Assembly (NCBI GenBank): GCA_051985095.1
Contig: JBPYEE010000054.1
Coordinates: 1-35,101, forward strand
Origin: Vicinamibacterales bacterium
GTDB taxonomy: Bacteria > Acidobacteriota > Vicinamibacteria > Vicinamibacterales > CAVVIG01
Direction of reading: 5' to 3'
DNA length: 35,101 nucleotides
Shown piece after piece: positions 5,650-32,307 of this stretch. Numbering within the stretch: the stretch's first letter is position 1; each line of letters starts with the position of its first letter. Under the pieces are notes generated by a model. The model saw nothing but the letters and a program-made list of their open reading frames with translations. It searched no databases and was not told the DNA's origin. The position numbers were made by a program, and so were the translations under genes.

Positions 5650-6004
5650 CGTGTCCCCAGTCGAGGGCCCCTTTGCGCCAGACGTAGATGTAACCGGTCA
5701 CCAGGAGCGCCATGAAGAGCAGCAGCTCCACAAAGCCATTCCATCCCAGCTGGCGCAGCGCCATCGCCCAGGGATACAGGAACGCCACTTCGATGTCGAA
5801 CAGCAGGAAAATCATCGCCACGAGGTAGAACTTGACCGACTGGCGCTCGCGTGCATCGCCGACGGGGGGCATCCCGCACTCGTACGGCGCTTCCTTTTCA
5901 GGCGTCGGTTTACGCGGCCCCAGGACGCTCGACAGCAGGATCGAGACCAGCGCGAAGCCGGCGCCGAGCGCGATCATGATCAGGATTGAGAGCCACCCTT
6001 GCAT
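5633..6004 (-). CDS. nuoA: NADH-quinone oxidoreductase subunit A
   Basis: 123-aa membrane protein with ...[41 protein letters not shown]..., the NuoA/ND3 signature. First gene of the operon, upstream of nuoB. Confidence 0.93.
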
Positions 6005-7673: not shown

Positions 7674-7681
7674 ATTATAAG
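7674..7681. promoter_or_regulatory. Shared AT-rich -10-like box in a 25-bp divergent intergenic region
   Basis: The minus strand reads TATAAT 9 nt upstream of ATG 7664. The plus strand reads TATAAG 8 nt upstream of the lhr GTG at 7690. This is the only AT-rich element between the two start codons. Confidence 0.3.
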
Positions 7682-7689
7682 ATGGCGAC

Positions 7690-10600
7690 GTGGCGCGCTC
7701 GTCGAGCAATTCGCTCGCGCTTTTTCATCCCGCGGTCTCCGACTGGTTCTCCGCGTCATTCGACGCCCCGACGCGGCCGCAGGAGCTCGGCTGGCCGGCA
7801 ATTGCGCGGCGCGAGTCGACGCTCATCCTCGCGCCGACGGGCAGCGGCAAGACGCTGGCGGCGTTCCTCTGGTGTCTCGATCGGTTGATGTTTGCGCCGG
7901 CGCCGCCCCGGAGCGGCCGCTGTCGCGCGCTCTACGTGTCGCCGCTCAAGGCGCTGGCCGTGGACGTGGAACGGAACCTCCGCGCGCCGCTGGCCGGCAT
8001 CGCGCAGGTCGCCGCGCGGCGGGGTGAGGCGGTCACGCCGCTGGCGATCGCGATTCGCACGGGCGACACGCCGCAGAGCGATCGCGCCCGGTTTCAGCGC
8101 GAACCCGCCGACATCCTGATCACGACGCCGGAATCGCTGTATCTCCTGCTGACATCGAACGCGCGCGACGCGCTGCGGTCAATCGACACGCTCATCATCG
8201 ACGAGATCCACGCGCTGGTGCCGACCAAGCGGGGCGCGCATCTCGCGCTGTCGCTCGAACGCCTCGAGGACCTCTGCGTCGCGTCGCCTCAGCGAATCGG
8301 CCTGTCGGCAACCCAGCGTCCGCTCGACGAGGTGGCGCGGTTCCTCGGCGGGGCGCGGCCGCCCGATCGCGGCGCGACGCGGGGCAGGCGGCCGACGCCG
8401 GCGCATGCCCGCGCCACCGACAGCGCCGCCTCGGCCGAGGCCGACCTCGAACGCGAATTCGCGTCCCATCGCGGGACCGTCCACTATCGACCGGTCACGA
8501 TCGTCGACGCCGGCGAAAAGAAGGCGTTGGCGCTGACGATCGAAGTACCGGTTGAGGACATGGCGAAGCTCACGACGGCCGACGACATCCCGAGCGGTCC
8601 CGCCTCGGTCGGCGACACGCGACCGTCGATCTGGTCGGCGATCCATCCGCGTCTGCTCGAGCTGATCCGCGCGCATCGATCGACGCTGATCTTCGTGAAC
8701 AGCCGGCGCCTCGCCGAACGGCTCGCTGGCGCGCTCAACGAGCTCGCCGGCGAGACGCTCGTCCGCTCGCATCACGGGTCGATCGCCCGGACCCAGCGCG
8801 TCGAGGTCGAGGACCTGCTCAAGGCGGGGCTCCTGCGGGCGCTCGTCGCGACCTCGTCGCTCGAGCTCGGGATCGATATGGGCGCCATCGACCTCGTGGT
8901 TCAGATTGAGGCGCCGCCGTCGGTCGCGAGCGGACTGCAACGGATCGGCCGTGGCGGTCATACGGCGCACGCGATCAGTGAAGGCGTCATCTTCCCGAAG
9001 TTCCGCGGCGACCTGGTGGCCTGCGCGGCGGTCGCGAAGGCCATGCATGAGGGGGCGGTCGAAGCGACGCGCTATCCACGCAATCCCCTCGATATCGTCG
9101 CGCAGCACGTGGTGGCGATGACGTCGATGGATCCCTGGGACGTGGACGCTTTGTTTGCCCTCGTCCGCCGCGCCGCGCCGTTTGCGGAGCTGTCGCGCAC
9201 CGTGTTCGACGGCGTGCTCGACATGCTGTCGGGCCGGTATCCGTCCGATGAGTTCGCGGAACTCCGGCCGCGCGTCACCTGGGATCGCGTGGGCGGCACA
9301 TTGGCGGCGCGGGAGGGTGCCAAGCGCGTGGCGATCGCAAACGGCGGGACGATCCCCGATCGCGGCCTGTACGGGGTCTTTCTGCTCGGCGCGGGACCGG
9401 GCGCCGCGCGCGTCGGGGAACTCGACGAAGAAATGGTCTTCGAAAGCCGCGTCGGCGAAACCTTCGTCCTCGGCGCCTCATCGTGGCGCATCGAGGAGAT
9501 CACGCATGACCGGGTGATTGTGTCGCCGGCCCCCGGCGAGCCGGGCAAAATGCCCTTCTGGAAAGGCGACCGTGCCGGACGGCCGCTCGAGCTCGGACTC
9601 GCGATCGGCCACCTGACGCACGACCTGCTGCGGCTGCCGGCGGCCGCCGCCGTCGATCGTCTGACCCGCGAGCACGACCTCGACGCGCGCGCCGCCGAGA
9701 ACCTGCTGCAGTACCTGCGCGATCAGCTCGCCGCGGCCCGCGCGGTCCCCGACGCCTCGACGGTCGTCGTCGAGCGCGTGCGCGACGAGCTCGGCGACTG
9801 GCGGGTCTGCGTGCTCTCCCCGCGCGGGGGACGAATCCACGCGCCATGGGCGATGGCGGTCGCCGCGAAGGTTCGCGAAGAGACGGGAGCTGACGTCGAG
9901 ACGCTCTGGGGCGACGATGGTTTTGTCGTGCGGTTTCCGGACGTCGACCAGCCGCCGGACCCGCGGCTGCTCACTCCGGATCCGGACGAGGCCGCCTCGC
10001 TGGTCGTGCGGCAGCTCGGCGCGACGGCGCTCTTCGCCGGAAAGTTTCGGGAAAACGCAGCGCGCTCGCTGCTGCTGCCCAAACACCGGCCCGGCACGCG
10101 GGCGCCCCTGTGGCAACAGCGCAAGCGCGCGGCTGACCTGCTCGCGGTCGCCTCGCGCTACGGCTCGTTTCCGGTGCTGCTCGAGACCTACCGCGAGTGT
10201 CTGCGTGATTTCTTCGACATGCCCGCGCTGGTGTCGACGCTCGCCGACCTGCGCAGCCGCCGGATTCGTCTGGTGACCGTCGACTCGGAGACTCCGTCGC
10301 CCTTTGCGGCGTCGCTGCTCTTCACCTACGTCGCGAGCTTCATCTACGATGGCGATGCGCCCCTGGCCGAGCGGCGCGCCCAGGCCCTCGCCGTCGACCA
10401 GTCACAGCTGCGCGAGCTGCTCGGCGACGCCGAGCTTCGCGATTTGCTCGACGCCGATGCGATCGACGCACTCGAGTACCACCTGCAACGGCTCGACCTG
10501 GCACACCAGGCGAAAAGCGCTGACGCGGTCCACGATCTTTTGCTGGGCCTCGGCGATTTGACGCGTGAGGAGCTGGCGGCGCGGTGCGCCACGATTGACG

Positions 10601-12426
10601 CGGCGGCCACCCTCGACGATCTCGTGCGGGCACGCCGGGCGCTCGAAATCCGGGTGGGCGGCGATCCCCGTTTTATCGCGATCGAGGACGCCGCGCGGTT
10701 CCGCGACGCGATCGGCGTTCCGCTGCCTCCCGGAGTGCCCGAATCGCTGCTGTCGCCGGTTCGGGACCCCGCCGGCGATCTCGCGCTGCGGTACGCGCGC
10801 ACGCACGCGCCGTTCATCGCAACCGATTTCGCGGCGCGCTACGGCCTCGGCGTGCACGCGGCGGAAGCCATCCTGACGCGCCTGACGGCGGAAGGCCGAC
10901 TCGTCGAGGGTGAGTTCCGGCCAGGCGGCACCAAACGCGAGTGGACCGACGCCGCGGTGCTTCGCATGATTCGCCGCCGCTCGCTCGCGAAGCTCCGACA
11001 GGAAGTGGAGCCGGTCGACCAGTCGGTGCTCGGCCGCTTCACGGCCACGTGGCAGGGAATCGTCAAGCGGCGATCGGGCGCCGATGCGCTCCTCGACGCA
11101 ATCGAGCAGGTGCAGGGAGCACCCCTTCCGGCTTCGATTCTGGAGACGGAGATTCTGCCGGCGCGTGTCGACCTGTACGATCCGGCCGATCTCGACGCGG
11201 TGACGGCTGCGGGCGAGGTCGTGTGGGTCGGGATCGAGCCGCTCGGAGAGCGCGACGGCCGGGTCGCGCTCTATCTCGCCGATCACCTGCCGCGCCTCAT
11301 CGCCCCGGCCAGCCGCCCGTCACGGCCCGACGGCGAGCGGGAACGTGCGATTCTCGAGTACCTCCGCGCGAACGGCGCGTCGTTTTTCGGTCCGCTGCAC
11401 GAAGCCGTTGGTGGCGGCTATCCCAATACGACCGTCGACGCGCTGTGGGAGCTCGTGTGGCGGGGCGATATCACCAATGACACGTTCCATGCCCTGCGGG
11501 CGTTTACGAGGGCGCACGCAGCACGCCGCAAAATGCGCCGGCTCGAACCGGCGGCGTTCCGGTCGCGCCGACTCGCGCCGCCGTCGGCGGAAGGGCGCTG
11601 GACGCTCGTCCGTCGGGGCGCGAAGCAGGATGCGACGAAGTGGGCCGCTGCCCTCACCGAGCAACTGCTGGCGCGCCACGGCGTGGTGACGCGCGAAGCC
11701 GTCGCCGCCGAAGCCATTCCCGGCGGATTCGGCCTCGTCTATACGGTGCTGAAAGGACTGGAGGAAAACGGACGGATCCGGCGCGGGTACTTCGTCGCCG
11801 GGCTCGGCGCGACGCAGTTTGCGCTGCCAGGCGCGCTCGATCTGTTGCGATCGCTCAGGGACGCGCCCGACGATGCGGAAATCGTCACGCTTGCGGCCAC
11901 CGACCCGGCCAATCCGTACGGCGCGACCCTGAAATATCCCCGGCCGGGCGAGACGGGCGCGACGGGCTCGGCACGGGCCGGCCGCGGCCCCGTGCGAACG
12001 GTCGGCGCAACGGCGATCCTCGTCAACGGGGCGTTGGCGGCGTACCTGGCACGCGGCGATCGACAGCTGCTGACGTTTCTGCCCGACGGCGAACCGATCC
12101 GAACGAAAACGGCGCGCGGGATCGCGCGGACGCTGATCGACCGCGCTCGCACCGGTACCGTGCAGGCCGACGCACCTCGGGGCATGCTGATCGAGGAAAT
12201 CGACGGCGTCTCGCCGTCCCTCCATCCGATGGCGCCGTTTCTGGCTGAAGCGGGATTCGTCGCCGGGGCGTTGGGGATGCAGGCGACGCTGGGGCGTCCA
12301 TCCCCGCCCCCCGCCCATCAGGCCGCGACCGGCCGGCCGTTCATCGCGAACCGCCGGCCGGCCAGGTCAACGATTTCGAGTCCTTTCGCGCGCCGTTACT
12401 TCGACGAAGGCGAGGACGACGCGTGA
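7690..12426 (+). CDS. lhr: Lhr-family ATP-dependent DNA helicase (large helicase-related protein, long form)
   Basis: 1578-aa ORF with a GTG start. N-terminus FHPAVSDWFSASF...PTRPQ..GWPAI, Walker A LILAPTGSGKTLAAF, DEIH box LIIDEIHAL, then GLSATQRP, SHHGSIAR and LQRIGRGGH. Its length matches long Lhr proteins (E. coli and mycobacterial Lhr are about 1500 aa). Confidence 0.93.
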   Translation: MARSSSNSLALFHPAVSDWFSASFDAPTRPQELGWPAIARRESTLILAPTGSGKTLAAFLWCLDRLMFAPAPPRSGRCRALYVSPLKALAVDVERNLRAPLAGIAQVAARRGEAVTPLAIAIRTGDTPQSDRARFQREPADILITTPESLYLLLTSNARDALRSIDTLIIDEIHALVPTKRGAHLALSLERLEDLCVASPQRIGLSATQRPLDEVARFLGGARPPDRGATRGRRPTPAHARATDSAASAEADLEREFASHRGTVHYRPVTIVDAGEKKALALTIEVPVEDMAKLTTADDIPSGPASVGDTRPSIWSAIHPRLLELIRAHRSTLIFVNSRRLAERLAGALNELAGETLVRSHHGSIARTQRVEVEDLLKAGLLRALVATSSLELGIDMGAIDLVVQIEAPPSVASGLQRIGRGGHTAHAISEGVIFPKFRGDLVACAAVAKAMHEGAVEATRYPRNPLDIVAQHVVAMTSMDPWDVDALFALVRRAAPFAELSRTVFDGVLDMLSGRYPSDEFAELRPRVTWDRVGGTLAAREGAKRVAIANGGTIPDRGLYGVFLLGAGPGAARVGELDEEMVFESRVGETFVLGASSWRIEEITHDRVIVSPAPGEPGKMPFWKGDRAGRPLELGLAIGHLTHDLLRLPAAAAVDRLTREHDLDARAAENLLQYLRDQLAAARAVPDASTVVVERVRDELGDWRVCVLSPRGGRIHAPWAMAVAAKVREETGADVETLWGDDGFVVRFPDVDQPPDPRLLTPDPDEAASLVVRQLGATALFAGKFRENAARSLLLPKHRPGTRAPLWQQRKRAADLLAVASRYGSFPVLLETYRECLRDFFDMPALVSTLADLRSRRIRLVTVDSETPSPFAASLLFTYVASFIYDGDAPLAERRAQALAVDQSQLRELLGDAELRDLLDADAIDALEYHLQRLDLAHQAKSADAVHDLLLGLGDLTREELAARCATIDAAATLDDLVRARRALEIRVGGDPRFIAIEDAARFRDAIGVPLPPGVPESLLSPVRDPAGDLALRYARTHAPFIATDFAARYGLGVHAAEAILTRLTAEGRLVEGEFRPGGTKREWTDAAVLRMIRRRSLAKLRQEVEPVDQSVLGRFTATWQGIVKRRSGADALLDAIEQVQGAPLPASILETEILPARVDLYDPADLDAVTAAGEVVWVGIEPLGERDGRVALYLADHLPRLIAPASRPSRPDGERERAILEYLRANGASFFGPLHEAVGGGYPNTTVDALWELVWRGDITNDTFHALRAFTRAHAARRKMRRLEPAAFRSRRLAPPSAEGRWTLVRRGAKQDATKWAAALTEQLLARHGVVTREAVAAEAIPGGFGLVYTVLKGLEENGRIRRGYFVAGLGATQFALPGALDLLRSLRDAPDDAEIVTLAATDPANPYGATLKYPRPGETGATGSARAGRGPVRTVGATAILVNGALAAYLARGDRQLLTFLPDGEPIRTKTARGIARTLIDRARTGTVQADAPRGMLIEEIDGVSPSLHPMAPFLAEAGFVAGALGMQATLGRPSPPPAHQAATGRPFIANRRPARSTISSPFARRYFDEGEDDA

Positions 12427-13055: not shown

Positions 13056-13078
13056 AGCGGCCCTCCTTCTAAGGCGCT

Positions 13079-13882
13079 GTGCCTGAAGGCGATACCATCC
13101 TGCTTACCGCGCGGACCCTCCACCGCGCCCTGGCCGGGTCGCGTGTGGTGCGATTCGAATCGGTCTTCCCGCTGATCACGCGCGCTTCCGGCGAAGATCG
13201 GATCATCGGGCGGGTCGTCGAATCGGTGTCGGCGCGGGGCAAGCACCTGCTCATCGCCTTTTCCGGTGATCTCGTCCTGCGCACGCACATGCGGATGAAC
13301 GGCAGCTGGCACATCTATCCGCCGGGCGCGCGCTGGCGGCGCCCGGCGCACCAGGCGCGCCTACTCGTCGCCACCGAACGAGCGGTGGCAGTCGGCTTCA
13401 ACGTGCCTGTCGCAGAGCTGCTGCCGGCTCGCCAGCTCGCGCGGCACGACGAGCTGCGATCGCTCGGACCCGATCTCCTTGCCGAGCCGTTCGACGCGGG
13501 CGAGGCCATGAAACGCGTCAGAAGCCACCCGCGCGAGCCCATCGGCGAGGTTCTCCTCGACCAGCGCGTGGTGGCCGGCCTCGGCAACGTGTTCAAGTCA
13601 GAAATCCTGTTTCTGGCCGGAATCGACCCGTTCGCGGCCACGTCGCAGCTCACCGATGCGCAGCTCGATCACATGCTCACGCTTGCGCGGAAACTGATGA
13701 AGGTCAGCGTCGCGATCGGACGCCGTGTGACGCGGAGCAGTCTCGACCCCTCACGCCGCCTGTGGGTCTACGGGCAGGGCGGCCAGCCCTGTTACCGGTG
13801 TCGCACGACAGTCCAGGCGAAGAAGACGGGCCCTCATGCGCGAATCACGTACTGGTGTCCACGCTGCCAGTCCGGGGCATGA
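13079..13882 (+). CDS. nei: Fpg/Nei-family DNA glycosylase / AP lyase (endonuclease VIII-like)
   Basis: 267 aa. N-terminal MPEGDT (catalytic Pro2/Glu3), H2TH region ...LLDQRVVAGLGNVFKSEILFLAGIDPF..., and a C-terminal zinc finger CYRC-x16-CPRC. Confidence 0.9.
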   Translation: MPEGDTILLTARTLHRALAGSRVVRFESVFPLITRASGEDRIIGRVVESVSARGKHLLIAFSGDLVLRTHMRMNGSWHIYPPGARWRRPAHQARLLVATERAVAVGFNVPVAELLPARQLARHDELRSLGPDLLAEPFDAGEAMKRVRSHPREPIGEVLLDQRVVAGLGNVFKSEILFLAGIDPFAATSQLTDAQLDHMLTLARKLMKVSVAIGRRVTRSSLDPSRRLWVYGQGGQPCYRCRTTVQAKKTGPHARITYWCPRCQSGA

Positions 13883-13928
13883 GCGGACGTGCGGCGTGAC
13901 GAAGGGGCCACCGCGGGTCCGCGGGCGC

Positions 13929-14732
13929 TCAACGAATCCGATCGGGACAGGCGTAAATGTTGAAGCTGTCGCCGCGCGCAAAACCCACCAGGGTGATGCC
14001 GGCCGCGACCGCCAGATCGATCGCCAGGCTTGATGGCGCCGAGACGGCCGCCAGAATGGGGATGCCGGCCACGGCGGCTTTCTGCACGATCTCGAACGAC
14101 GTGCGGCCACTCACGCAGAGGGCGTACGCCGACAGCGGCAGGTCGTCTCGCATCACGCGTCGGCCGATCACCTTGTCAACTGCGTTGTGGCGCCCGACAT
14201 CTTCAGCCACATCGACCAGCATGCCGTCGGCGGCAAATAGTCCGGCGGCGTGCAACCCGCCCGTCTCGTCAAACGCCGGCTGCGCCGCTCGCAAGCGGGT
14301 TGGGAGCGACGCGACGACGGCCCAGGGCATCGTGGTGGTCGAGGCAACGGCCGGCAGGTCTTCCGTCAGCGAGTCGATTGTCTGCCGGCCGCAGACTCCG
14401 CACGCGGAGGCCGCCGCGAGGTCGCGCCGGTGGCCGAGGGCCTGCGCGACCATGCGCTCATCGGCAAACGTCACATTGACCACGTTGTCGTTGCCGGCGT
14501 CGGCGCAGTGCTCGATCAAGGCCAGGTCGTCGCTCGTCCGGATCAGCCGCTCAGCCAGCAGAAACCCGGCCGCAAGCTCGCGATCACTGCCGGGCGTGCG
14601 CATGATCGTGGCAAACGGCTCGCCGTGCACCCGGATCGTGAGCGGTTCCTCGGCTGCCGCGCGATCCGTCGCCGCCATCCGCCCGCCGCCGTGGACGCGG
14701 ACGATCTCGACCGCCTGCGTCAAGCGCGTCAC
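13929..14732 (-). CDS. fdhD: Formate dehydrogenase accessory sulfurtransferase FdhD
   Basis: 267 aa with ...EEPLTIRV.G..FATIMRTPG.DRELAAGFLLAE..., the catalytic loop ...SACGVCG..., ...GGLHAAGLF..., ...EDVGRHNAVDKVIG... and ...VSGRTSFEIVQKAAVAGIPILAAVSAPSSLAI.... Confidence 0.9.
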   Translation of the reverse strand: MTRLTQAVEIVRVHGGGRMAATDRAAAEEPLTIRVHGEPFATIMRTPGSDRELAAGFLLAERLIRTSDDLALIEHCADAGNDNVVNVTFADERMVAQALGHRRDLAAASACGVCGRQTIDSLTEDLPAVASTTTMPWAVVASLPTRLRAAQPAFDETGGLHAAGLFAADGMLVDVAEDVGRHNAVDKVIGRRVMRDDLPLSAYALCVSGRTSFEIVQKAAVAGIPILAAVSAPSSLAIDLAVAAGITLVGFARGDSFNIYACPDRIR

Positions 14733-14741
14733 ACCAGGATC

Positions 14742-14769
14742 TTAGACGACGGCAGGCCTAAACTAAAAT
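14742..14769 (+). promoter_or_regulatory. Putative sigma70-like promoter (TTAGAC-N16-TAAAAT) directly abutting the yajQ start
   Basis: TTAGAC at 14742..14747 and TAAAAT at 14764..14769, with the ATG at 14776 and no SD. This would give a leaderless or near-leaderless mRNA. Confidence 0.3.
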
Positions 14770-14775
14770 GCCCGG

Positions 14776-15276
14776 ATGGCCGCGAACGTCTCGTTCGACA
14801 TTACCTCCACGATCGACTTCGCCGAAGTCGACAACGCGCTGAATCAAGCCCGGAAGGAAGTGGGCCAGCGGTACGACTTCAAGGGCGTGACCGCCGAGAT
14901 CGACTTGAGCGAAAAGGACAAGACGCTGACGCTCGTCACCGACGACGACTTCAAAATGAATGCGCTGTGGGAGATCGTCCAGACGCGCCTGGTGCGGCGG
15001 GGGGTGCCGATCAAGAACTTCCAGGTGCCCGCCAGCGAGCCGGCGGCCGGCGGCAAGGTCCGCCGCGCGATTCAGATTCAGCAGGGCATCCCGATCGAGG
15101 CGGCACGCGCCATCGTGAAGTTCATCAAGGACAAGAAACTCAAGAAGGTGCAGGCCGCGATTCAGGCGGATCAGGTCCGCGTGTCGTCGCCGTCAAAGGA
15201 CGAGCTGCAGGAGGCGATTCACGCGCTGCGTGAGCACGACTTCGGGGTTGCGCTGCAGTTCGGCAACTACCGGTAG
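14776..15276 (+). CDS. yajQ: YajQ-family nucleotide-binding protein (UPF0234)
   Basis: 166 aa. ...SFDITSTIDFAEVDNALNQARKEVGQRYDFKG... through ...DELQEAIHALREHDFGVALQFGNYR is the characteristic YajQ sequence pattern. Confidence 0.92.
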   Translation: MAANVSFDITSTIDFAEVDNALNQARKEVGQRYDFKGVTAEIDLSEKDKTLTLVTDDDFKMNALWEIVQTRLVRRGVPIKNFQVPASEPAAGGKVRRAIQIQQGIPIEAARAIVKFIKDKKLKKVQAAIQADQVRVSSPSKDELQEAIHALREHDFGVALQFGNYR

Positions 15277-15873: not shown

Positions 15874-18768
15874 GTGGCGTTCAGCTTGCACCTTTTTGAG
15901 AAGGTGCTGGCCACACGACGCCCGCTGTCGACATACCGGCTGCAGCTGAACCGCGATTTCACCTTTGCTAAGGCCACTTGCATAGTCGGATACCTGGCCG
16001 ACCTTGGCGTCGGGGATGTCTACGCCTCGTCTTATCTCGCTGCAGTTCCGGGAAGCCCACACGGCTACGACGTCAGCGATCCGACACGGCTCAATCCCGA
16101 CCTCGGCACCGACACCGAGTACTGGGTCTGGATTCGGGCGATGCAGGCCCACGGGATGGGGCACCTGATCGACGTCGTGCCGAACCACATGGGGATCGCG
16201 GCATCAGCGAATCCGTGGTGGCTCGATGTGCTCGAGAACGGGCCCAGCTCGCGGTACGCGCGGTTCTTCGACATCGAATGGCATCCGATCAAGGCCGAGT
16301 TGGCCGACAAGGTTCTCATCCCGGTGCTCGGCGATCAGTACGGCGAAGTCCTCGAGCGCCGGGAGTTGCAGCTGGCGTTTCAGGACGGCGGCTTTCGCGT
16401 CCAGTACTACGACGAGGTGCTGCCGATCGCGCCAGACACGTATCCGCAGGTACTCGCCGACGAACTGCCCGACTGGCTCGCGATGCACCGCGGCGACGAC
16501 GCCGACGAGATGCAGAGCATCATGACGGCGGCCTCGAATCTGCCGTCGCGCAGCGCGCGGGATCCCGACGCGATCGCGACGCGCGCGCGCGAGAAGGAAA
16601 TCGTCAAGCGCCGGCTCGCCGATCTCGCATCGCGCAGCGTGCCGGTCGGCGCGCTGATCGGCCGCGCGGTGACCCGTCTCAATGGGATCGCGGGGCAGCC
16701 GCACAGCTTTGATGCGCTCGATCGTCTGCTGAGCGCGCAGTCGTACCGCGTGGCGCACTGGCGGGTGGCGTCCGAAGAGATCAACTACCGGCGCTTTTTC
16801 GACGTCAACCAGCTGGCGGCGCTCCGCATGGAAGACCCGGCGGTGTTCGACGAGGTCCATCGCCTGATCTTCCAACTCGTCGAACGTGGCGCCGCCACCG
16901 GCCTGCGCCTCGATCATGTCGACGGCCTCTTCGCGCCCGGCGACTATCTCCGCCGCCTGCAGTCGCGCCTTCAGCATCCGTTCTACATCGTCGTCGAAAA
17001 GATCCTCGCGACGGGTGAACAGCTGCCGCACGAGTGGCCGATCGCCGGCACCACCGGATACGAGTTCGGGGCGGTCGTCAACAATCTATTCGTCGATGGA
17101 CGCAACGAGCGCGCGCTCGAGGACATCTATTGGCGGTTCATCCGCGAACGGCGCGAGCGGCAGACCTTCGAGGATCTGGCCTACCGGAGCAAGAAACAGA
17201 TTCTGCACGAAACGATGTCGGGCGATATCAACTCACTCGGCCATCAGCTGAACTGTTTCTCCGAGCGCAACCGCCACTTTCGCGATTTCACGCTCTACAA
17301 CCTGATCTCGACGATCAAGGAGATCATCGCCAGCTTCCCGGTGTACCGGACATACGTCAACGAACAGGATCCCATCAGCGAGCACGATCGCCGGTACATC
17401 GGCGAGGCGGTGCGAAGCGCGAAGCGGCGGGCCGGCGGCATGACGTCGCTGGCCTTCGATTTCATCGAACGGCTGCTCCTGAAGCGGACGCCCGTGGCGA
17501 CCCCGGAGGAGAGCGCCGAGCGCGCCCGGATCATCGGGAAATTCCAGCAGATTACGAGCCCGATCGCCGCCAAAGGCATCGAAGACACCGCGCTGTATCT
17601 GTACAACCGGCTCGTCTCTCTCAACGAAGTCGGCAGCGATCCGACCGTGTTCGGCCTCTCTCCGGCGCAGGTGCATCGGTGGATGGCCGAGCGGCAGCGG
17701 TGCTGGCCGGCGGCGCTGTCGACAACCTCCACGCACGATACCAAGCGCGGCGAGGACGTCCGCGCACGCCTCAACGTCCTCTCGGAAATCCCGGGCGCGT
17801 GGAGAGCGGCGGTGTAGAAATGGCGGGCACTCAACCGCCGCCACAAGACCGACCTCGCCGAAGGCGTGCCGGACCGCAATGAGGAGTACTTCATCTATCA
17901 GACGCTGGTCGGTGCCTGGCCGAGCGATCCGACGGGCCACGAGGCCGATAGCCGCTTTTGCCGGCGGATCGTCGACTACATCCGCAAGGCGCTCCGGGAG
18001 TCGAAGGTTCACACCAGTTGGATCAGTCCGAACGAAGAGTATGAACGAGCGGTCACCCGATTCATCACCGCCATCCTGCAGCGCCGGCGGTCGAATCCGT
18101 TTCTCCGCGCGTTCGTGCCATTTCAGCGACGCGTCGCCGAACTGGGGATCTACAACAGCCTTGCGCAACTCGTCCTGAAGATTACGGCGCCCGGCGTCCC
18201 CGACTTCTACCAGGGGACCGAGTGGTGGGACCTCAATCTGGTCGATCCCGACAACCGTCGCCCGGTCGACTACGAGCGGCGGCGGAACACGCTGGCCGCG
18301 TTGCAGAGCTGTCCGGGACCGGCCGGCGACTGTGCGAGCGACCTGCTGGACCATCGTGCCGACGGGCGCGTCAAGATGTTCGTGATGGCGCGCGCACTCC
18401 AGGCGCGCCGGGAGTTTCAGCCCGTGTACGAGGAGGGCGACTACGTGCCCCTCGAGGTGTCCGGCGAGCGGCACGACTGCGTGTTCGCGTTTGCGCGCGC
18501 CGCCGCCGCCGGGGTGGCCCTTACGATTGTCCCGCGCCTGATCGCGTCCCTGATCCCCGACGTGGCGGCCCCGCCGCTCGGGCGCGCGGTGTGGGGCGAC
18601 ACGCGGATCGACGTCGGCCCGGCGCTGCACGGGTCGTCCGGTCGGTGGCGCAATGTGTTCACGACGGCGCTCATCGACACCCCCGGCGGATCGGGCGATC
18701 GCTCGCTCGACGTCGCTGCGCTGCTCGAGCGCTTTCCGGTTGCCGTGCTCGTCCCGTGCTCCGCGTGA
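15874..18768 (+). pseudogene. treY: Malto-oligosyltrehalose synthase (TreY) interrupted by a single in-frame TAG at 17815..17817
   Basis: Track ORFs 15874..17817 and 17866..18768 are in the same frame (the difference is 1992 nt, which is 664 codons). The bridging codons KWRALNRRHKTDLAEGV are open. N-terminus ...STYRLQLNRDFTF...YASSYL...SPHGYDV.DP..LNP.LG......DVVPNHMG, and the downstream part ...DRNEEYFIYQTLVGAWP... are typical of one contiguous TreY of about 960 aa. Confidence 0.85.
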
Positions 18769-25384: not shown

Positions 25385-26551
25385 TCAGCCTGTCCGGCCG
25401 ACGCGGGTCGCCAGGATCTCGTCGACCGCCGCAATCGCGGCATCGAGCTCTTCATCGGTGGTGTAGAAGTGCGGCGACATCCGCACACCCGCATGCGGCC
25501 GCCAGTCGACGAGGACGTCCCGCTTCAGCAGCTCGCGGCAGACGTCGGGTGCGTCGGGCATGTCGATTGAGACGGTGCCGCCGCGCACGGATCGATCGCG
25601 GGGCGTGTGGACGCGCCACCCGCGCGCGTCGGCCAGCTCGATGAGCCGTGCAGTCTGACGCTCCGATTTCTGACGGATCCGATCAACGCCGGCTTCGCCG
25701 ATGATCCGCAATCCGGGTCGCGCGGCTTCGAGCCCCGGAATGTTCGAGGTGCCGTTCATGAACCGGTACGGCGGATTGGTGTAACGAATCGGGCCGGTCT
25801 CGAACGCGAAGGGATCTTCGTGCGCGAACCAGCCGGTCAGCGTGGGGCGCAAGTCCAGCGCGAGATCGGGGCGAACATAGAGATACGAGGTCCCCGGTCC
25901 GCCACAGAGCCACTTGAGCACCCCACCACACGCGAAATCGACGTTCAGGGCTCGGACGTCGACCGGCACCGTGCCGAGCGACTGAAAGGTGTCGAGCAGC
26001 ACATGCGCCCCCACCCGATGGGCCTTGTCGACGATCGCCTGTGCATCGTTGATGAACGCGCTCCGAAAGAGGACGTGCGACTCCGGCACGAGGACCGTCT
26101 CCTCGTCGATCGCCTCGAGCAGCCGTTCGGTCGGAACGGTGATTCCGTCCTCGGTCCTGACCATCTGGACGCGGGCACCGCGCGCGCGCTGCGCCTCCCA
26201 GAAATACATCACCGATGGGAAGTTCAGGTCCGTATAAACGATCTTGTTGCGCCTGCCGGAGAAGTCAAAGCACGACGCGACCACCGCCTGGCAGGTCGTC
26301 ACATTGCCGTAGGTGGCCACCGAGCCGGGAGCGGCGTTCATCAGCCGGCCGATCTCGCCGCCAACCTCTGCGGCCAGCGTCCACCACCGTTCTTCCCACG
26401 CGCGGACGCCACGGGTGGCCCACGTGTCGGCATAGTCGCGCATCGCATCGACCACGCCGCGGGGCATGGCGCCGAGCGAGTTGCTGATCAAATAGGTCGA
26501 GCGGCCGAGGATCGGAAACTCCGGCCGGAAGCGCAGCAGATCGTCACTCAT
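25385..26551 (-). CDS. Kynureninase-family PLP-dependent hydrolase
   Basis: Track ORF 25385..27598 trimmed to ATG 26551..26549 (MSDDLLRFRPEFP...). 388 aa, co-linear with kynureninases: ...YLISNSLGAMP..., ...DLNFPSVMY..., PLP-lysine context DFACGGVLKWLCGGPGTSYLYV, ...LTGWFAH..., ...VRMSPHFYTT.EE.D. The ATG overlaps the permease stop (ATGA). Confidence 0.85.
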   Translation of the reverse strand: MSDDLLRFRPEFPILGRSTYLISNSLGAMPRGVVDAMRDYADTWATRGVRAWEERWWTLAAEVGGEIGRLMNAAPGSVATYGNVTTCQAVVASCFDFSGRRNKIVYTDLNFPSVMYFWEAQRARGARVQMVRTEDGITVPTERLLEAIDEETVLVPESHVLFRSAFINDAQAIVDKAHRVGAHVLLDTFQSLGTVPVDVRALNVDFACGGVLKWLCGGPGTSYLYVRPDLALDLRPTLTGWFAHEDPFAFETGPIRYTNPPYRFMNGTSNIPGLEAARPGLRIIGEAGVDRIRQKSERQTARLIELADARGWRVHTPRDRSVRGGTVSIDMPDAPDVCRELLKRDVLVDWRPHAGVRMSPHFYTTDEELDAAIAAVDEILATRVGRTG

Positions 26552-27867
26552 CCGGCGATTGTACGTTTGCGGTACGCGTTCTTCAGCGCCAGGTAGGCGA
26601 GGTTGAGCACGAGCAGATACGCCACGCCGCTCGACACCGCGAGCGGCGAATCGAACCAGGTTTTCCCGATGCACAGCACGATCAAGGCGAAACCAGTCAG
26701 CGAGGCGCGCGCGGCGGCGACGCCGCCGCGACTCCGGATGTGCGCGGCCAGCGTCACCAGCCAGGACAACAACAGCCCGAAAAGCGCGGCGTTGAGGATC
26801 GACACGAACGCGGCGCCCGGCGCCCAGCGTTCGAGGGCCAACGCCAGGCCGATCGGCACTGACGACACGAGAACGGCATAGGTCGGCGAGCCGGCGCGAT
26901 TCAAGGCGCCGACGCGCGCCGGCGCCCATCCGCTTCGTGCGAGCGAGAAGAGGGTTCGCGAGGCCGAGTAGAGCGCCGCGTTGGCGCCGGACAGCGCCGC
27001 CGTGAGCACCGCGAAGTTCATCAGGTGACCTGCCGCAGGAATGTTCACCCGGCGGAAGACGGTGACGAAGGGCGATTCGGTGACGCCCGTGCGATCCCAC
27101 GGGATCACGCCGGTGAGCACGACGATTGCGCCCAGATAGATCACGGTGAGCGTGCCGAAGGTCAGGCGCGTCGCACGCGCCACATCGGCCGCGGATCGCG
27201 ATTCCCCGCTGGTGACGGCGACGAACTCGACGCCGGCAAAGGTGTACAGCGCAAAGGGCAGCGCGAGCAGCGGCGCCAGCGCGCCACGTGGAAAGAAGCC
27301 CCCGCGCGCGGTGTACTGCGGAGCGGTGCGGCCGGTGAGCATCAGTGCCGCGCCGAGCACAACGAAGGCGAGGATCACCATCACCTTGATCATCGCGAAC
27401 CAGTATTCGAAGCGGCCGTACTCGCGCACGCCGAGGAGGTTGACGGCCAGCAGCAGCCCGGATGCGAGGACGACCCACGCGAGTGGCGGCACGCGCGGAA
27501 ACCAGAACGCCATGTAGGTGGCCGACGCGACCATTTCCGCGCCGATGGAGATGGCGATGGCCGCCCAGTAGCCGGCACCCGCGAGGAATCCGGCCCACTG
27601 GTTCAGGTACAGATCCCCATACAGGCGAAAGGATCCGGCGGCCGGGTGCCGGCTCGCGAGATCGCCCAGCGCGCAGGTGACGGTCCAGGTGATGAACGCC
27701 GCGAGCAGGAACGTCAGGATCACGGACGGACCGGCGACGCCGATCGCGGCAGCCGATCCCAACAGCAAACCGGTCCCGATCGATCCGCCGACCGCGACCA
27801 TCGTCATCTGGCCAGCGGTCAGCTGGCGGCGGAGCCCGTGCTCGGGCGAGGGGACGGCTTCGATCAA
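26548..27867 (-). CDS. APC-superfamily amino acid permease
   Basis: 439-aa polytopic membrane protein. ...LRRQLTAGQMTMVAVGGSIGTGLLLGSAAAI... is the APC signature near TM1. The TTG start overlaps the upstream stop (TTGA). Confidence 0.9.
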   Translation of the reverse strand: MIEAVPSPEHGLRRQLTAGQMTMVAVGGSIGTGLLLGSAAAIGVAGPSVILTFLLAAFITWTVTCALGDLASRHPAAGSFRLYGDLYLNQWAGFLAGAGYWAAIAISIGAEMVASATYMAFWFPRVPPLAWVVLASGLLLAVNLLGVREYGRFEYWFAMIKVMVILAFVVLGAALMLTGRTAPQYTARGGFFPRGALAPLLALPFALYTFAGVEFVAVTSGESRSAADVARATRLTFGTLTVIYLGAIVVLTGVIPWDRTGVTESPFVTVFRRVNIPAAGHLMNFAVLTAALSGANAALYSASRTLFSLARSGWAPARVGALNRAGSPTYAVLVSSVPIGLALALERWAPGAAFVSILNAALFGLLLSWLVTLAAHIRSRGGVAAARASLTGFALIVLCIGKTWFDSPLAVSSGVAYLLVLNLAYLALKNAYRKRTIAG

Positions 27868-28847
27868 CGCGAGACGGTGACGGTTACGTTTTCGTAGGTA
27901 AACAGCGACCCGTCGCTCGCGACAGCGCGCAGCGTGTACTCGCCCGGTTCATCGAAGCTCACCTCGGTCACCCACTTTCCATCCGGCGGCGGCACCGGAA
28001 CCGTGTAGGGCGGCGACCACGGGGAGTTCGCGTACGCGCGCGTGTCGGTCCACGTCTTCATCTGATCCGGGCGGAACGTGACGCTCGACGCCCTGCCGCG
28101 GTACACCATCCACGACATCCGCAGGCCGGGCCCGCTCGACGGCACGATCGCGGACGGTGGCCGGTAGATCTGGTTTGCGAGCGATGCGGGCGTCGGGACC
28201 GCGCGCGGCGCGGCGGCGGGCGCCGGCGGGTCGGCCGACATCATCCGGCCGCTGGCATCGCGGGGCTGCGGTTTGCCGTCGCGGCGCGCCGGCAGATTAT
28301 CGGGATCACCGGCGAAGGCGGTCAGGACCAGTATTTCACCGGTTTTGATCGTGCGCCGCGGCGCGCCCTCGATGCGCAGCTCGGGCGGCACGTTCGTCCT
28401 CAGCTCGTCGCGCAGACTGCCGAAGTCGCCGCCGACTTCGGTCGAGATCACTTGATTGTCGATCTGGTAGTCCGATTTGAGCGACGCGTAAGCCTTCTCC
28501 GTCCGGCCGTTGGTGGTCAGCGTCCAGATCAACTCGCGGCTGGCCATGTCCTTCGGCACCTTCACTGTGAACAGAAACGGACTCCGCCGCGGATAGAAAT
28601 GCGTCGGCTGGCCCTGGTCCGGACCGCCCGGCTCGATGGTGTTGTCGGGTCCGATCGGCACATCGAACTGCTGCAGCCAGTTCGAGTTCATGTACCCGAA
28701 GTACATCGTCACCGTGCCGTCCGGCGCGTACATCCACCCTTCGTAGGCCGGCGAGACGCTCTGGCCGCTCGAGTAGGTGAAACGCGTCTGGGCGGTCACC
28801 ACCGCGAGCGACGACGCGGCGACGAGGGCCGCCAGGATCGTGCGCAT
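27864..28847 (-). CDS. Secreted protein of unknown function (two modules joined by a Pro/Ala-rich linker)
   Basis: Track ORF 27864..29240 trimmed to ATG 28847..28845, which overlaps the upstream stop (TGATG). Signal peptide MRTILAALVAASSLAVVTAQ, an internal linker ...SADPPAPAAAPRAVPTPAS..., and a beta-rich C-terminus ...GEYTLRAVASDGSLFTYENVTVTVSR. No family recognised. Confidence 0.65.
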   Translation of the reverse strand: MRTILAALVAASSLAVVTAQTRFTYSSGQSVSPAYEGWMYAPDGTVTMYFGYMNSNWLQQFDVPIGPDNTIEPGGPDQGQPTHFYPRRSPFLFTVKVPKDMASRELIWTLTTNGRTEKAYASLKSDYQIDNQVISTEVGGDFGSLRDELRTNVPPELRIEGAPRRTIKTGEILVLTAFAGDPDNLPARRDGKPQPRDASGRMMSADPPAPAAAPRAVPTPASLANQIYRPPSAIVPSSGPGLRMSWMVYRGRASSVTFRPDQMKTWTDTRAYANSPWSPPYTVPVPPPDGKWVTEVSFDEPGEYTLRAVASDGSLFTYENVTVTVSR

Positions 28848-30247
28848 CAGCGGGCGGACTGGCCGGTGGTCGGCATGGTCGTCACTGCCGGCGGCGCCCA
28901 GCACAGCGGGCAGCCGATGTCGTAATCGTTGCGGTTCTTCATCCTGGCGCGCCGCTTCGCCATCTCCGCCTGAAACTGCTCTTCGGTGAGCGAGACGGAG
29001 TAGCCGAGATCGATGAACATGTTCGCGATCGATCGCCGGCCGCCGCCGGCCCAGTTCCGCGGGTCTGCGGGATTCTTGTTCGCGGCCGTCGTGTCGAGGA
29101 ACCCGATCAGGTGGACGATCGTGCCCTTGGGCAGAAGCGGCGCGGCATCGTCCTCGTAGACATACTGCTTCACCCAGTTGTGGTCGTACCCGACGCAGTT
29201 GAGCGTCTGGATGTTGTGGCCCCAGATCGCTTCCAGGCACATGCGAACGCCCGGCGCGTGCAGGTGCGGCTCGAACGCGATGATCTTCGTGTGCTCCTGA
29301 AGCGTGGCGTACGCGTGCAGCTCCTGGTTCGCCTGGTTGGGCTTGACGTCGATGTCGATGCCGTTGCCGAGCCGCAGGGTGGAGCGTTTGTAAATGGGCT
29401 TGTACCCCGCGGGAAACAACTTGAACGCGAACTCGAGGTGGGCCTTCGTCTCGCGTCCGTTCGGATGAATGTGGCCGGCGTCGAGCGACAGCGCTGAATT
29501 GGCCTGCAGCAGGCGGCCTGCTTCCGGCGGGAAAATGTCGGCGTTGCGTCCAACCTCGTGGATGGGCCAGCTGCTGGCGAGCTCGTCGCCATTGCCCCGC
29601 TCGCCCATCTTCACGCTCGTGTACGTCATGTGATGAAACACGTACCGGCCGCCGACCGTCTTCGTCGCCCCCCCGCGCGGGATGTCGTTGATCTCGCGGA
29701 CCTCGACCGCCGACACGTAGCGATCTTCGGTGAGCCCCGTCGGAATCAGCCCGACGTCACCCCACCAATCCGGCCCGCTGGCGGGCACGAGGACTTCCTT
29801 CGATTTCAGCACCAGGTCGGGCTCGCCGATCGTCCACGTGTCGGAATCATCAAACCGCCGGGGCGGCGGCATGTCGGCGGGGTTCCCGCGGGGCGCCCCG
29901 CTGTCGGCCCAGGTGGCAATCTTCGCGATCTCCTCGTCGGAGAGCGACGGATCGTGCTTGAACTTCTGGATGCCGATGTTCTTCTCGACGAAAAACGGCG
30001 GCATCGCGCCGCGCTGGCTGCGCAGCGCCGTCCGCGTCTTGATCGAGCGCGCCCACGGCCGCACATCTTCATAGGTGACGAGGGGCATCGGCGCCACGCC
30101 ATCGACGTGGTGACATTCCTGGCAGCTGCGCTGCAGGATGGGCGCGATGTCCCGAGTGAAGGTGACGTCGGTCGATTGTGCCCGCGGGGCCGCCCAGCCG
30201 AGCAGGCCGACACCGGCGGCGGTGAGAAGAGCGGCGCGAACCGTCAT
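28847..30247 (-). CDS. Secreted haem-c (CxxCH) protein with a PHM/DBH-like copper monooxygenase ligand pattern
   Basis: Track ORF 28847..30268. I prefer ATG 30247..30245 because AAGGAG (30260..30255) lies 7 nt upstream. Signal peptide MTVRAALLTAAGVGLLGWAAPRAQS. Haem motif CQECH at 30124..30110 in the context FTRDIAPILQRSCQECHH...MPPF. Candidate Cu ligands (numbered from ATG 30247): H205-H206 (VFHHM), H259/H261 (GHIH), H328-x-H330 (PHLHAPG) and M410 (IANMF). Their spacing is similar to PHM CuH/CuM sites. Confidence 0.7.
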   Translation of the reverse strand: MTVRAALLTAAGVGLLGWAAPRAQSTDVTFTRDIAPILQRSCQECHHVDGVAPMPLVTYEDVRPWARSIKTRTALRSQRGAMPPFFVEKNIGIQKFKHDPSLSDEEIAKIATWADSGAPRGNPADMPPPRRFDDSDTWTIGEPDLVLKSKEVLVPASGPDWWGDVGLIPTGLTEDRYVSAVEVREINDIPRGGATKTVGGRYVFHHMTYTSVKMGERGNGDELASSWPIHEVGRNADIFPPEAGRLLQANSALSLDAGHIHPNGRETKAHLEFAFKLFPAGYKPIYKRSTLRLGNGIDIDVKPNQANQELHAYATLQEHTKIIAFEPHLHAPGVRMCLEAIWGHNIQTLNCVGYDHNWVKQYVYEDDAAPLLPKGTIVHLIGFLDTTAANKNPADPRNWAGGGRRSIANMFIDLGYSVSLTEEQFQAEMAKRRARMKNRNDYDIGCPLCWAPPAVTTMPTTGQSAR

Positions 30248-30273
30248 AGGCACACTCCTTCGCGGCAACTATC

Positions 30274-32307
30274 TCATGCTGAGGGGACCGACGGCAATGC
30301 AAACGACAGCAGCGTCGTGCCCGCGGCGATCACGATGTGCTGACGGCCGTCGAGGATGAAGGTCATCGGTGCGGCGCCCCAAATCGGCGTCCCGGTTGAA
30401 TAGCGCCACAGATGGGCGCCGTTTTGCGAATCAAACGCCATGAAATTGCCTTCGTTATCGCCCGCAAAGACAAGCCCCGACGCCGTGCTCATCACGCCGG
30501 CCATGGTCGGCGAGGTGAACCTGAATTCCCATCGCCGCTCGCCCGTCGTCGGGTCGATCGCGCGCAGCGCGCCGTACGCCTTCTCGCGATCGACGCGCAC
30601 GACACCGCCGAAATTCTGCTTCCCCGGCGTATTGGCGGGCGCCTGCGGCACGAAGACCGCGCAGGTTTCCCGCGCGTTCACGAAGAACAGGCGGCGCGCC
30701 GCATCGAATGACGGCGGATTGAAATTCGTGCCGCCCCACTGGTCTGGCACGCACCGGGTCGTGCCATCGTTCAGGACGAGCGGCCGGCCATCGCGGCCGA
30801 TTTCGCGGGCCCACGTCGTATCGGTGAACGGCTTACCGACCAGCAGCGTGCCGTCGCGCCGATCGAGCACGTAAAAGAATCCGTTCCGATTCGCAAGCAT
30901 GACGACCTTGCGTGTCACGCCGCCGATGGCCAGATCGGCGAGCACCGGGACCTGGTTGGCGTCCCAATCGTGCGTGTCGTGCGGCGTGAACTGGTAATGC
31001 CACCTGAGCGTGCCGGTGCGCGCGTCGATGGCGACAACCGAGTTCGTGTACAGGTTGTCGCCTTCCCGCCCGTGGCCCCAATAATCGGGATTCGGATTGC
31101 CCGTGCCCCAATAGAGCAGGTTCAAATCCGGGTCGTAGCTGCCGGTCATCCAGGTCGCGCCGCCGCCGCGCGCCAGCGTCTCGGCCGAGGCCGGCCACGT
31201 GTCGCTGCCCGGCTCACCCGGCGCCGGCACCGTGTAGAAGCGCCAGAGGCGGGCACCGGTCGACGGTTCGTATGCGTCGAGGAATCCGCGCGTCGGATAT
31301 TCGCCGCCCGAGATGCCGACGATCACTTTGTTGTCGATCACGAGCGGCGCGAGCGTTGCCGAGTAGCCGATCTTGTAGTCGGCCAGGACGACATCCCATT
31401 CAATCCGCCCGGTGCGGCGGTCGAACGCGAGCAGGTGCGCATCGAGCGTCACCATGAACAGACGGTCGCCGAGCATGCCGAAGCCCCGATTGACGGGCGC
31501 CTGGGCGCCATAGGTGAGGTCGGCCGGCAGCTCGCGGCGATATTGCCAGAAGGGACGGCCCGTTCGCGCGTCGATCGCCCACGCGAAATCGTTCGACCCG
31601 GTGACGTAGAGCACACCGTCGAACAGGAGCGGCGTCGCCTCGAACCCGCGCCCCCGCGTCAGCGTACCGGTTTGAAAGGTCCATTCGGCCGTCAGGCGAC
31701 CGACGTTGGCCGGCGTGATTTGCGTCAGCGGGCTGTGCCGCTGGGCCGTGAAGTCGCCGTGGAAGGAGAGCCACCTGGAGGGATCCTTCAACCCGTCGAG
31801 CAAATCGCGGTAGGTGATGCCGGGTGGCGACGTCGGCTTTGGGGGGGTCGGATGGAACGCCCCCGCCGCGTCGCCGCGCCGCACGTCGCGGAGATCGCGT
31901 TTCAGAAAACCCTGCAGCCGTCCGGTCGCGTCCGCAATTTGGATTGAAAAGGCGTCCTCGTTCTTGCGCTCGCCGTGAATCTCCCCGCCGTCGCGCGTGA
32001 CGAGGGTGACGATCTGGCGCACATCGGGTGCGAGCGTTTTCAGATGCGAGACGATGCTGCGGATTTCCTCGTCGGTCGCCGCGCTGCGCGGCATGGCGGT
32101 CCCGGGCACGCCGCTCCGAATGGTCTGAAACAGCCGCTCGTCACTCACGCCTCGGGCCGCGAGCGTCGTCAGGTCTGGGCCATTCAGCCCTTTCGCGTCA
32201 GCGCCGTGACAGGCGGCACACGTCTGCGCATAGAGCGCGGCGCCCGATCCGACCGCCGGCACCTGCGGCATCGGCGCCAGCAGGGCCGCGATGAGCAGGT
32301 CCAGCAT
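30274..32307 (-). CDS. PQQ-dependent dehydrogenase (8-bladed propeller, alcohol dehydrogenase family) with an N-terminal cytochrome c domain
   Basis: 677 aa. Haem motif CAACH at 32220..32206, followed by ...TAMP.... Propeller repeats with the recurring A.D..TG...W pattern (AIDARTGRPFWQY, AFDRRTGRIEWDV, AIDARTGTLRWHYQFTPHDTHDWD, AIDPTTGERRWEF, AFDSQNGAHLWRY). Confidence 0.88.
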   Translation of the reverse strand: MLDLLIAALLAPMPQVPAVGSGAALYAQTCAACHGADAKGLNGPDLTTLAARGVSDERLFQTIRSGVPGTAMPRSAATDEEIRSIVSHLKTLAPDVRQIVTLVTRDGGEIHGERKNEDAFSIQIADATGRLQGFLKRDLRDVRRGDAAGAFHPTPPKPTSPPGITYRDLLDGLKDPSRWLSFHGDFTAQRHSPLTQITPANVGRLTAEWTFQTGTLTRGRGFEATPLLFDGVLYVTGSNDFAWAIDARTGRPFWQYRRELPADLTYGAQAPVNRGFGMLGDRLFMVTLDAHLLAFDRRTGRIEWDVVLADYKIGYSATLAPLVIDNKVIVGISGGEYPTRGFLDAYEPSTGARLWRFYTVPAPGEPGSDTWPASAETLARGGGATWMTGSYDPDLNLLYWGTGNPNPDYWGHGREGDNLYTNSVVAIDARTGTLRWHYQFTPHDTHDWDANQVPVLADLAIGGVTRKVVMLANRNGFFYVLDRRDGTLLVGKPFTDTTWAREIGRDGRPLVLNDGTTRCVPDQWGGTNFNPPSFDAARRLFFVNARETCAVFVPQAPANTPGKQNFGGVVRVDREKAYGALRAIDPTTGERRWEFRFTSPTMAGVMSTASGLVFAGDNEGNFMAFDSQNGAHLWRYSTGTPIWGAAPMTFILDGRQHIVIAAGTTLLSFALPSVPSA

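Follow-up and report, generated by a model that had tools for sequence, protein, structure and literature searches.

Can a secreted bacterial protein that joins a c-type cytochrome motif to the copper-ligand pattern of peptidylglycine alpha-hydroxylating monooxygenase (PHM) and dopamine beta-hydroxylase (DBH) be a relative of these enzymes, and if so, what would supply its electrons? The question is raised by one gene in a 35,101-nucleotide contig (JBPYEE010000054.1, assembly GCA_051985095.1) of a Vicinamibacterales bacterium, referred to here in its full length as the window. The gene occupies positions 28847..30247 of the minus strand, and its 466-residue product, hereafter the target, is a secreted haem c protein with a PHM-like two-copper pattern. 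PHM, DBH and tyramine beta-monooxygenase are regarded as enzymes of eukaryotes that depend on ascorbate, and the route by which electrons reach their CuH site and cross from there to the CuM site is still debated. A preliminary description of the window had likened a series of histidines and a methionine in the target to the ligands of these two sites. Here we report that the likeness extends to the fold, that six of these residues keep the PHM register across a large bacterial family, and that the gene is paired with a second, neglected one. We consider it probable that the target acts in the periplasm as a PHM/DBH-type monooxygenase with two non-coupled coppers, with a fused c-haem as its reductant and in complex with a partner protein made of immunoglobulin (Ig)-like domains.

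The open reading frame (ORF) of the target reads from an ATG at 30247 to 28847 on the minus strand, on which all features of the target listed below also lie, and a G+C fraction of 0.87 at third codon positions (GC3) marks this frame as coding. The position of a Shine-Dalgarno sequence, AAGGAG (30255..30260, minus strand), 7 nt 5' of this ATG, favours it over an upstream TTG at 30268. Residues 1-24, MTVRAALLTAAGVGLLGWAAPRAQ (30176..30247), look by eye like a Sec-type signal peptide; export is a requirement for the attachment of c-haem. Translation places the ORF with its apparent signal peptide, the haem attachment motif CQECH (residues 42-46; 30110..30124) and the residues H205-H206, H259-x-H261, H328-x-H330 and M410 exactly where the preliminary description had them.

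A structural model of the target was built with AlphaFold2 (AF2) on an alignment of 24 diverse full-length family members (33-53% identity; alignment A1) and reached a mean predicted local distance difference test score (pLDDT) of 82.3 and a predicted template modelling score (pTM) of 0.79, with values below 50 at the N-terminus, in the signal peptide region. In the model a helical domain (residues 30-115) is followed by two consecutive beta-sandwich, or jelly-roll, subdomains at residues ~145-290 and ~300-420 and by a final helix. The first sandwich (29363..29830) is the equivalent of the PHM N-subdomain, which holds the CuH or electron-transfer site, and in profile alignments made with hhalign it covers PHM residues ~71-190; the second (28988..29362), delimited by its strands and by hhalign, is the equivalent of the C-subdomain, which holds the CuM or O2 site. 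When the model was compared with the PDB by Foldseek, human DBH (4zel) ranked first (E 1.8e-10), followed by ~30 rat PHM entries (E 7e-8 to 6e-5, probability 1.00), and the top 28 matches were DBH or PHM throughout (E 1.8e-10 to 2.8e-5, probability 1.00). The next family on the list was PNGase, a sister family in the same Pfam clan (CL0612), with viral jelly-roll capsid proteins further down. The best superposition was obtained with 6ala_C (template modelling score 0.60, root-mean-square deviation 5.0 A), the H108A-citrate form of PHM, in which the two subdomains are closed (PMC6123673). This match no more than hints at a spacing like that of PHM, with two mononuclear coppers ~11 A apart across a solvent cleft. 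The double beta-sandwich implied by the comparison in the preliminary description is thus found in the model.

Profile comparisons were made with the rat PHM catalytic core, in a version identical to PDB 4e4z_A (residues 45-356 of PAM). Alignment A1 matched it with an E-value of 1.3e-3, the alignment ending before the methionine; a core-only profile of 115 homologues did so with 7e-3 over 257 columns, and a profile of nine divergent cores (A4) with 1.8e-6 and a probability of 89.7% over 239 columns. Wherever these three alignments overlap they give one identical ligand register, at a target-PHM sequence identity of 10-20%. The CuH ligands of PHM are H107, H108 and H172 (PMC6123673). Residues H205-H206 of the target (29630..29635) fall on H107-H108 in this register, and H259, within H259-I-H261 (29465..29473), falls on H172. 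H328-L-H330 (29258..29266) coincides with H242-x-H244 and, in the 115-sequence and A4 profiles, M410 (29018..29020) with M314, the three established CuM ligands of PHM; around M410 the family motif R-S/T-x-D-E/N-M aligns with S-S-D-E-M of PHM. At the level of sequence, a CuH-type His-His...His set is thus present in the first subdomain and a CuM-type His-x-His...Met set in the second. The possibility that H259-x-H261 forms a ligand pair was considered too and discarded: only 104 of the 115 homologues keep H261, which gives way to R, L, Q, F, S or Y in the others and aligns with a non-ligand position of PHM. By this alignment H259 alone would provide the third histidine of the CuH-type site, and H261 appears to be a family-specific extra histidine. 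The ligand parallel drawn in the preliminary description accordingly stands for six residues but does not extend to H261.

Conservation was followed both in A1 (n=24) and in the larger set of 115 homologues, which span 25-82% identity. Among the residues invariant in A1 are C42, C45, H46, M82, H205, H206, H259 and H328, while H330 and M410 are at least 90% conserved. In the larger set H205-H206, H259 and H328 are each kept in 112 homologues and H330 and M410 each in 111; all six PHM-equivalent ligands occur together in 111/115, and the complete pattern, C-C-H-M / HH / HxH / HxH / M, in 103/115. Because ligands and haem motif are kept over so wide a range of identity, the pattern is not due to chance, and the possibility raised in the preliminary description, that the histidines and methionine might vary among homologues, is not borne out. 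Three paralogues (L027:10592-11752, L033:10524-11702 and L035:5779-6981; L numbers denote the best 80 of at least 582 encoding loci found in a scan of one genome per species, to which all locus counts given here refer) lack every copper-type residue yet keep CxxCH and M82. In these proteins HH has changed to RY, H259 to A/G, H328 to D/E and H330 to G, and the methionine is deleted; in each case the gene is the third in a row, following immediately on a normal target-partner pair. Judged from sequence, such all-or-none loss is what would be predicted for a functional metal centre, and the ligand-less paralogue may shuttle electrons by its haem alone or serve as a pseudo-enzyme subunit.

The N-terminal part of the target (residues ~28-118; 29894..30166) is a helical c-type cytochrome domain, with helices at residues 30-41, 59-79 and 104-115 of the AF2 model. 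It contains both a CxxCH motif, whose C42, C45 and H46 are kept in 114/115 homologues, and a candidate distal ligand, M82 (30002..30004), which lies in an invariant MPP motif, is kept in all 115 homologues and is likely to be the sixth (distal) ligand of the haem. No curated cytochrome c model of Pfam or NCBIfam was matched above threshold by the query; its match to Pfam Cytochrome_CBB3 (E 2.4e-4, 21.8 bits against a cut-off of 27) is sub-threshold, as are the matches to this model in 23 of 24 diverse relatives. In a search of PDB sequences, the segment F-T-x-D-I-A-P-I-L-x-x-x-C-x-x-C-H was found to resemble hydrazine synthase alpha (5c2v) and the monohaem cytochrome c 4rlr. Model confidence is high (pLDDT 78-96) for the linker between the haem domain and the core, which suggests that in the model the two are held in a fixed arrangement and are not merely tethered. 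Other cysteines of the target also vary in concert. C337 and C351 always co-occur (98/115 homologues) and likely form a disulfide. A C-terminal CPLC motif (C446, C449; 28901..28912) is a subfamily-specific CxxC, both cysteines being present in 85/115 homologues and jointly absent from the rest, and thus marks the subfamily of the query; the mean pLDDT of this tail is 79 for residues 441-450 and 57 for residues 451-460, falling below 50 only from residue 457, and the motif could have a Cu(I)-handling or thiol-redox role.

The gene directly downstream of the target (27864..28847, minus strand) was passed over in the preliminary description. It encodes a 327-residue secreted protein with a signal peptide of its own and two Ig-like beta-sandwich domains, and its ATG overlaps the TGA of the target gene (TGATG). 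By tblastn this partner follows the target directly on the same strand in ~70 of the 80 loci, several of which contain two tandem target-partner pairs, and all-against-all clustering of the ORFs of these loci identified the target and partner families as the only conserved ones. In four homologues of A1 the partner is fused to the target, N-terminally in P0156, C-terminally in P0143 and P0155 and split between the two ends in P0151 (blastp E 1e-38 to 1e-46), and on the respective contigs P0155 and P0156 each form one single ORF. We conclude that the partner is a physical subunit of the target enzyme. Its AF2 model (pLDDT 61.9) has two Ig-like sandwiches, of which the N-terminal one is of low confidence, and returned generic Ig-like Foldseek matches only. 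The family alignment contains many invariant Trp, Asp, Asn and Arg residues and no invariant Cys or His; the invariant aromatic and charged positions include W38, W57, W108, W266, W277 and Y304. This family of more than 6,000 sequences carries no annotation at all: its homologues have no informative name, and comparison with Pfam and NCBIfam gave no match.

Several observations weigh against assigning the target to the PHM/DBH type. The query had no match at E<=1 to the Pfam models Cu2_monooxygen and Cu2_monoox_C and none in NCBIfam, and phmmer and hmmsearch comparisons of the query and two family profiles with PDB sequences retrieved haem-motif matches only and neither PHM nor DBH. The residues that in PHM hold the glycine carboxylate are likewise not kept: R240 aligns with E326 (family consensus Q), N316 with I412 (not conserved) and Y318 with L414 (family consensus W), so that the chemistry could differ. 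Finally, beyond the partner the gene context of the 80 loci is not conserved and offers no clue to the substrate. The relation to PHM/DBH is thus one of remote homology and not of ordinary membership, and with these three residues lost the target would not be an amidating enzyme in the strict sense. The Pfam comparison that the preliminary description had proposed gave a divided answer, in that the query misses both copper models but some relatives reach them, Cu2_monoox_C being matched by 5 and Cu2_monooxygen by 4 of 24 diverse family members. P0175 is the sole relative above the gathering cut-off (Cu2_monoox_C, 23.6 against 23 bits), the other matches being sub-threshold. The kinship is therefore visible to domain databases in some members and is not unprecedented at the level of annotation.

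Two longer relatives place the target in a broader setting. P0239 (1251 aa) combines AhpC/redoxin, cytochrome c, thioredoxin-like and Cu2_monoox_C domains, and P0240 (1064 aa) combines cytochrome c, a PHM-like core and EF-hands; both are homologous to the target over cytochrome c and core (28-32% identity, E ~1e-53), with a weak Pfam Cu2_monoox_C signal, but unlike the target they are much longer and have extra redox or Ca-binding domains. These proteins suggest that the bacterial superfamily is wider and that its modules for electron supply or regulation vary, and the additional redox domains of P0239 fit a core that needs an electron supply. The searches made retrieved no characterised protein of the P0239/P0240 type, and neither a characterised bacterial member of the target family nor its haem-fused architecture was found in the literature searched, although absence there is not proof of absence.

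For the monooxygenase that we consider probable, the following sequence of events can be proposed. The protein would be exported by the Sec pathway and haem would then be attached at C42-x-x-C45-H46, with M82 as the probable sixth ligand. The reductant would be this covalently fused cytochrome domain and not ascorbate: the haem would draw electrons one at a time from carriers in the periplasm and pass them to the CuH-type site (H205, H206, H259) and from there to the CuM-type site (H328, H330, M410), both of which would be expected to contain copper. The CuM-type site would bind and activate O2 for the hydroxylation of a C-H bond in a substrate other than a glycine-extended peptide. Throughout, the enzyme would act in complex with its translationally coupled partner, whose two Ig-like domains would probably bind or present the substrate or anchor the enzyme. 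In this genome a plausible electron donor would be the quinohaemoprotein dehydrogenase encoded 26 nt upstream.

The gene for this protein (30274..32307, minus strand) encodes a pyrroloquinoline quinone (PQQ)-dependent dehydrogenase of the methanol/ethanol family with an N-terminal cytochrome c domain (Pfam PQQ, E 1e-86, and Cytochrome_CBB3). It scores above the cut-off of TIGR03075 (503 against 480 bits) and below that of TIGR04528, 'acido-empty-quinoprotein group A' (529 against 650 bits). The gap of 26 nt between the end of this gene and the ATG of the target makes co-transcription likely in this genome. The quinohaemoprotein does adjoin the target here, as the preliminary description had stressed, but it is not a conserved neighbour: a PQQ dehydrogenase is found immediately upstream in only 2/80 loci (L002 and L070) and within 8 kb in ~10, and in L001 the gene directly upstream of an 85%-identical orthologue encodes a protein like the alpha subunit of Rieske [2Fe-2S] oxygenases (L001:6732-7832; CRHRG...CPYH). 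Since the adjacency is rare and absent in L001, we regard the fused haem as the built-in electron entry point and the quinohaemoprotein as a possible donor of local significance at most, which does not belong to the conserved system. As a separate observation, the cytochrome c domain of the dehydrogenase lies at residues 19-92 and is thus N-terminal; in the known type II quinohaemoprotein alcohol dehydrogenases this domain is C-terminal.

Other explanations of the same data have to be weighed. The fold and metals could be as proposed but serve an electron sink or oxidoreductase, in which the His2Met copper would use electrons from the cytochrome c to reduce O2, H2O2 or nitrite and no organic substrate would take part. 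A cytochrome c as fusion partner is a typical feature of terminal reductases in the periplasm, the CuM site of PHM binds nitrite, azide and CO in crystals (3mib, 3mlk, 3mlj), none of the substrate-binding residues of PHM is kept, and the relative P0239 is fused to a peroxiredoxin-type domain. We nevertheless judge such a reductase unlikely, as the characterised proteins of this fold and ligand set are all monooxygenases, several paralogous target-partner pairs per genome better fit diversified substrates, and a conserved non-redox partner would be unexpected for a simple reductase. The partner could alternatively be the substrate itself, an Ig-like protein of which the enzyme would hydroxylate or oxidize a residue in order to mature it. 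This idea is drawn solely from the analogy with periplasmic haem enzymes that modify a tryptophan of a partner protein; strict one-to-one pairing, translational coupling and fusions would suit it, as would the many invariant aromatic and charged residues of the partner and its lack of invariant Cys or His. That enzyme and substrate should form a single chain would be unusual, on the other hand, and the low-confidence model of the N-domain of the partner offers no site to propose, making this scenario quite improbable in our view.

A genuine bacterial peptidylglycine alpha-hydroxylating, that is amidating, enzyme appears very improbable even though PHM is among the best structural and sequence matches, given that R240, N316 and Y318 are not conserved, that no gene for a PAL-like lyase or a peptide precursor recurs nearby in the 80 loci, and that DBH matches at least as well as PHM in Foldseek. 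We give scarcely any credence to the suggestion that the protein is a mere cytochrome c joined to a non-catalytic beta-sandwich, PNGase F-like or a carbohydrate-binding jelly roll, whose His and Met residues have no metal function. The public names of the family, only 'mono/diheme cytochrome c family protein' or 'hypothetical', would be compatible with it, and PNGase and viral capsid jelly rolls do appear lower down in the fold search; but six residues hold the exact PHM register over the whole identity range of the homologues and are jointly lost in three paralogues, and the chance of such conservation without function is very small.

Comparison with characterised systems helps to define what a PHM/DBH-type monooxygenase of this architecture would share with them. 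The target resembles PHM (the catalytic core of PAM; 1PHM, 1SDW, 4E4Z) in its two-beta-sandwich core, in the order and register of His-His...His (CuH) and His-x-His...Met (CuM) and in the S-x-D-E-M motif around the methionine; unlike the target, PHM is a eukaryotic, ascorbate-reduced enzyme of the secretory pathway that has no haem domain, and its substrate-binding residues named above are absent from the target. With DBH (4ZEL), the best Foldseek match of the model and a member of the group that also holds tyramine beta-monooxygenase and MOXD1, the target shares the presence of an extra N-terminal domain before the core in the same chain, but in DBH this is a DOMON beta-sandwich, whereas in the target it is a CxxCH cytochrome c; the DOMON domain of DBH is not known to bind haem. 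DBH is also ascorbate-dependent and has a C-terminal dimerisation domain, in place of which the target has a separate Ig-like partner. In functional terms, a haem one-electron carrier that feeds an O2-activating copper is also found in lytic polysaccharide monooxygenase (LPMO) with the cytochrome domain of cellobiose dehydrogenase and in the proposed system of particulate methane monooxygenase (pMMO), methanol dehydrogenase and cytochrome cL, although the folds and copper sites of LPMO (histidine brace) and pMMO (membrane CuMMO) are unrelated to those of the target. As in the proposed coupling of pMMO to methanol dehydrogenase, a PQQ dehydrogenase with c-haem adjoins the target in this window, but the adjacency is not conserved. 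What appears to be new is the combination of a remote bacterial PHM/DBH branch, a covalently bound c-haem that would replace ascorbate, and an obligate subunit from a new family.

The family is large. More than 7,900 relatives of the target were found in a protein collection clustered at 90%, the best 120 of which are 79-90% identical, originate without exception in metagenomes of soil or sediment and go by the names 'hypothetical' or 'mono/diheme cytochrome c family protein'. In an exhaustive HMMER search of 1.84 billion representatives of 50% clusters, 10,837 proteins passed E<=1e-3, and 579 of them also passed E<=1e-30. The best 80 loci belong nearly all to Vicinamibacterales and other Acidobacteriota (including Bryobacteraceae) or to Gemmatimonadota (Longimicrobiales, Gemmatimonadales), and several genomes encode more than one copy. 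The closest of them is a metagenome-assembled genome (MAG) of Vicinamibacterales with 83-85% identity, in keeping with the 65-70% G+C of the window.

After target and partner, the commonest family in the 80 loci is that of an uncharacterised secreted protein, with 13 loci, followed by PQQ dehydrogenases with 10. The secreted protein, of ~330-360 aa, is encoded within 8 kb of the pair in these 13 loci and directly downstream of the partner in four; examples with the motifs G-D-P-D-L-Q-G-I-W and Y-E-Y-A-C-H-E-G-N-Y are L007:10441-11403, L011:10388-11410, L014:10460-11449 and L026:10367-11167, among others. Downstream of the partner in the window, at 25385-27867 (minus strand), lie genes for an amino acid permease (26548..27867), whose TTG start overlaps the partner stop codon (CGTTGA), and for a kynureninase-like class V aminotransferase; both may be on the same transcript as the pair in this genome, and neither recurs beside the pair among the 80 loci. 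Scans for promoters and terminators gave no more sites than were found in shuffled sequence, and a search of sequencing runs matched only soil metagenome DNA, thus yielding no evidence of expression. The remainder of the window (973-5697, minus strand; 7681-12426, plus strand; 13073-15276) has ordinary chromosomal content, in which we noted NADH dehydrogenase subunits (NuoF, E, D and B-like), a glycosyltransferase, an Lhr-type large helicase of ~1,580 aa, an Fpg/Nei glycosylase, FdhD and DUF520; an ORF of 316 aa at 17818..18768 (plus strand) had no match in Pfam.

A bolder interpretation, which we think rather unlikely, would make the target the first example of a whole bacterial clade, very large in size, in which copper hydroxylases of the PHM/DBH type are linked directly to the periplasmic cytochrome c network without ascorbate or NAD(P)H, have a dedicated Ig-like subunit of a new family and, in genomes such as this one, form a redox loop with the neighbouring quinohaemoprotein. 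In such a loop the hydroxylase would make an alcohol, and the PQQ enzyme would oxidize it and return the electrons through the c-haems; if true, this would be a soluble counterpart of the coupling proposed for pMMO and methanol dehydrogenase.

PHM has been described as the eukaryotic branch of its clan (PMC8812541). A bacterial version with a covalent c-haem that can be seen by spectroscopy would make it possible to trigger the delivery of electrons and to observe it directly, and expression of the target protein should be feasible with the help of a bacterial system for cytochrome c maturation. Genomes of Vicinamibacterales and Gemmatimonadota, two dominant soil groups about which little is understood, often contain several target-partner pairs; given this abundance, whatever the family oxidizes is likely to matter for the turnover of carbon or nitrogen in soil.

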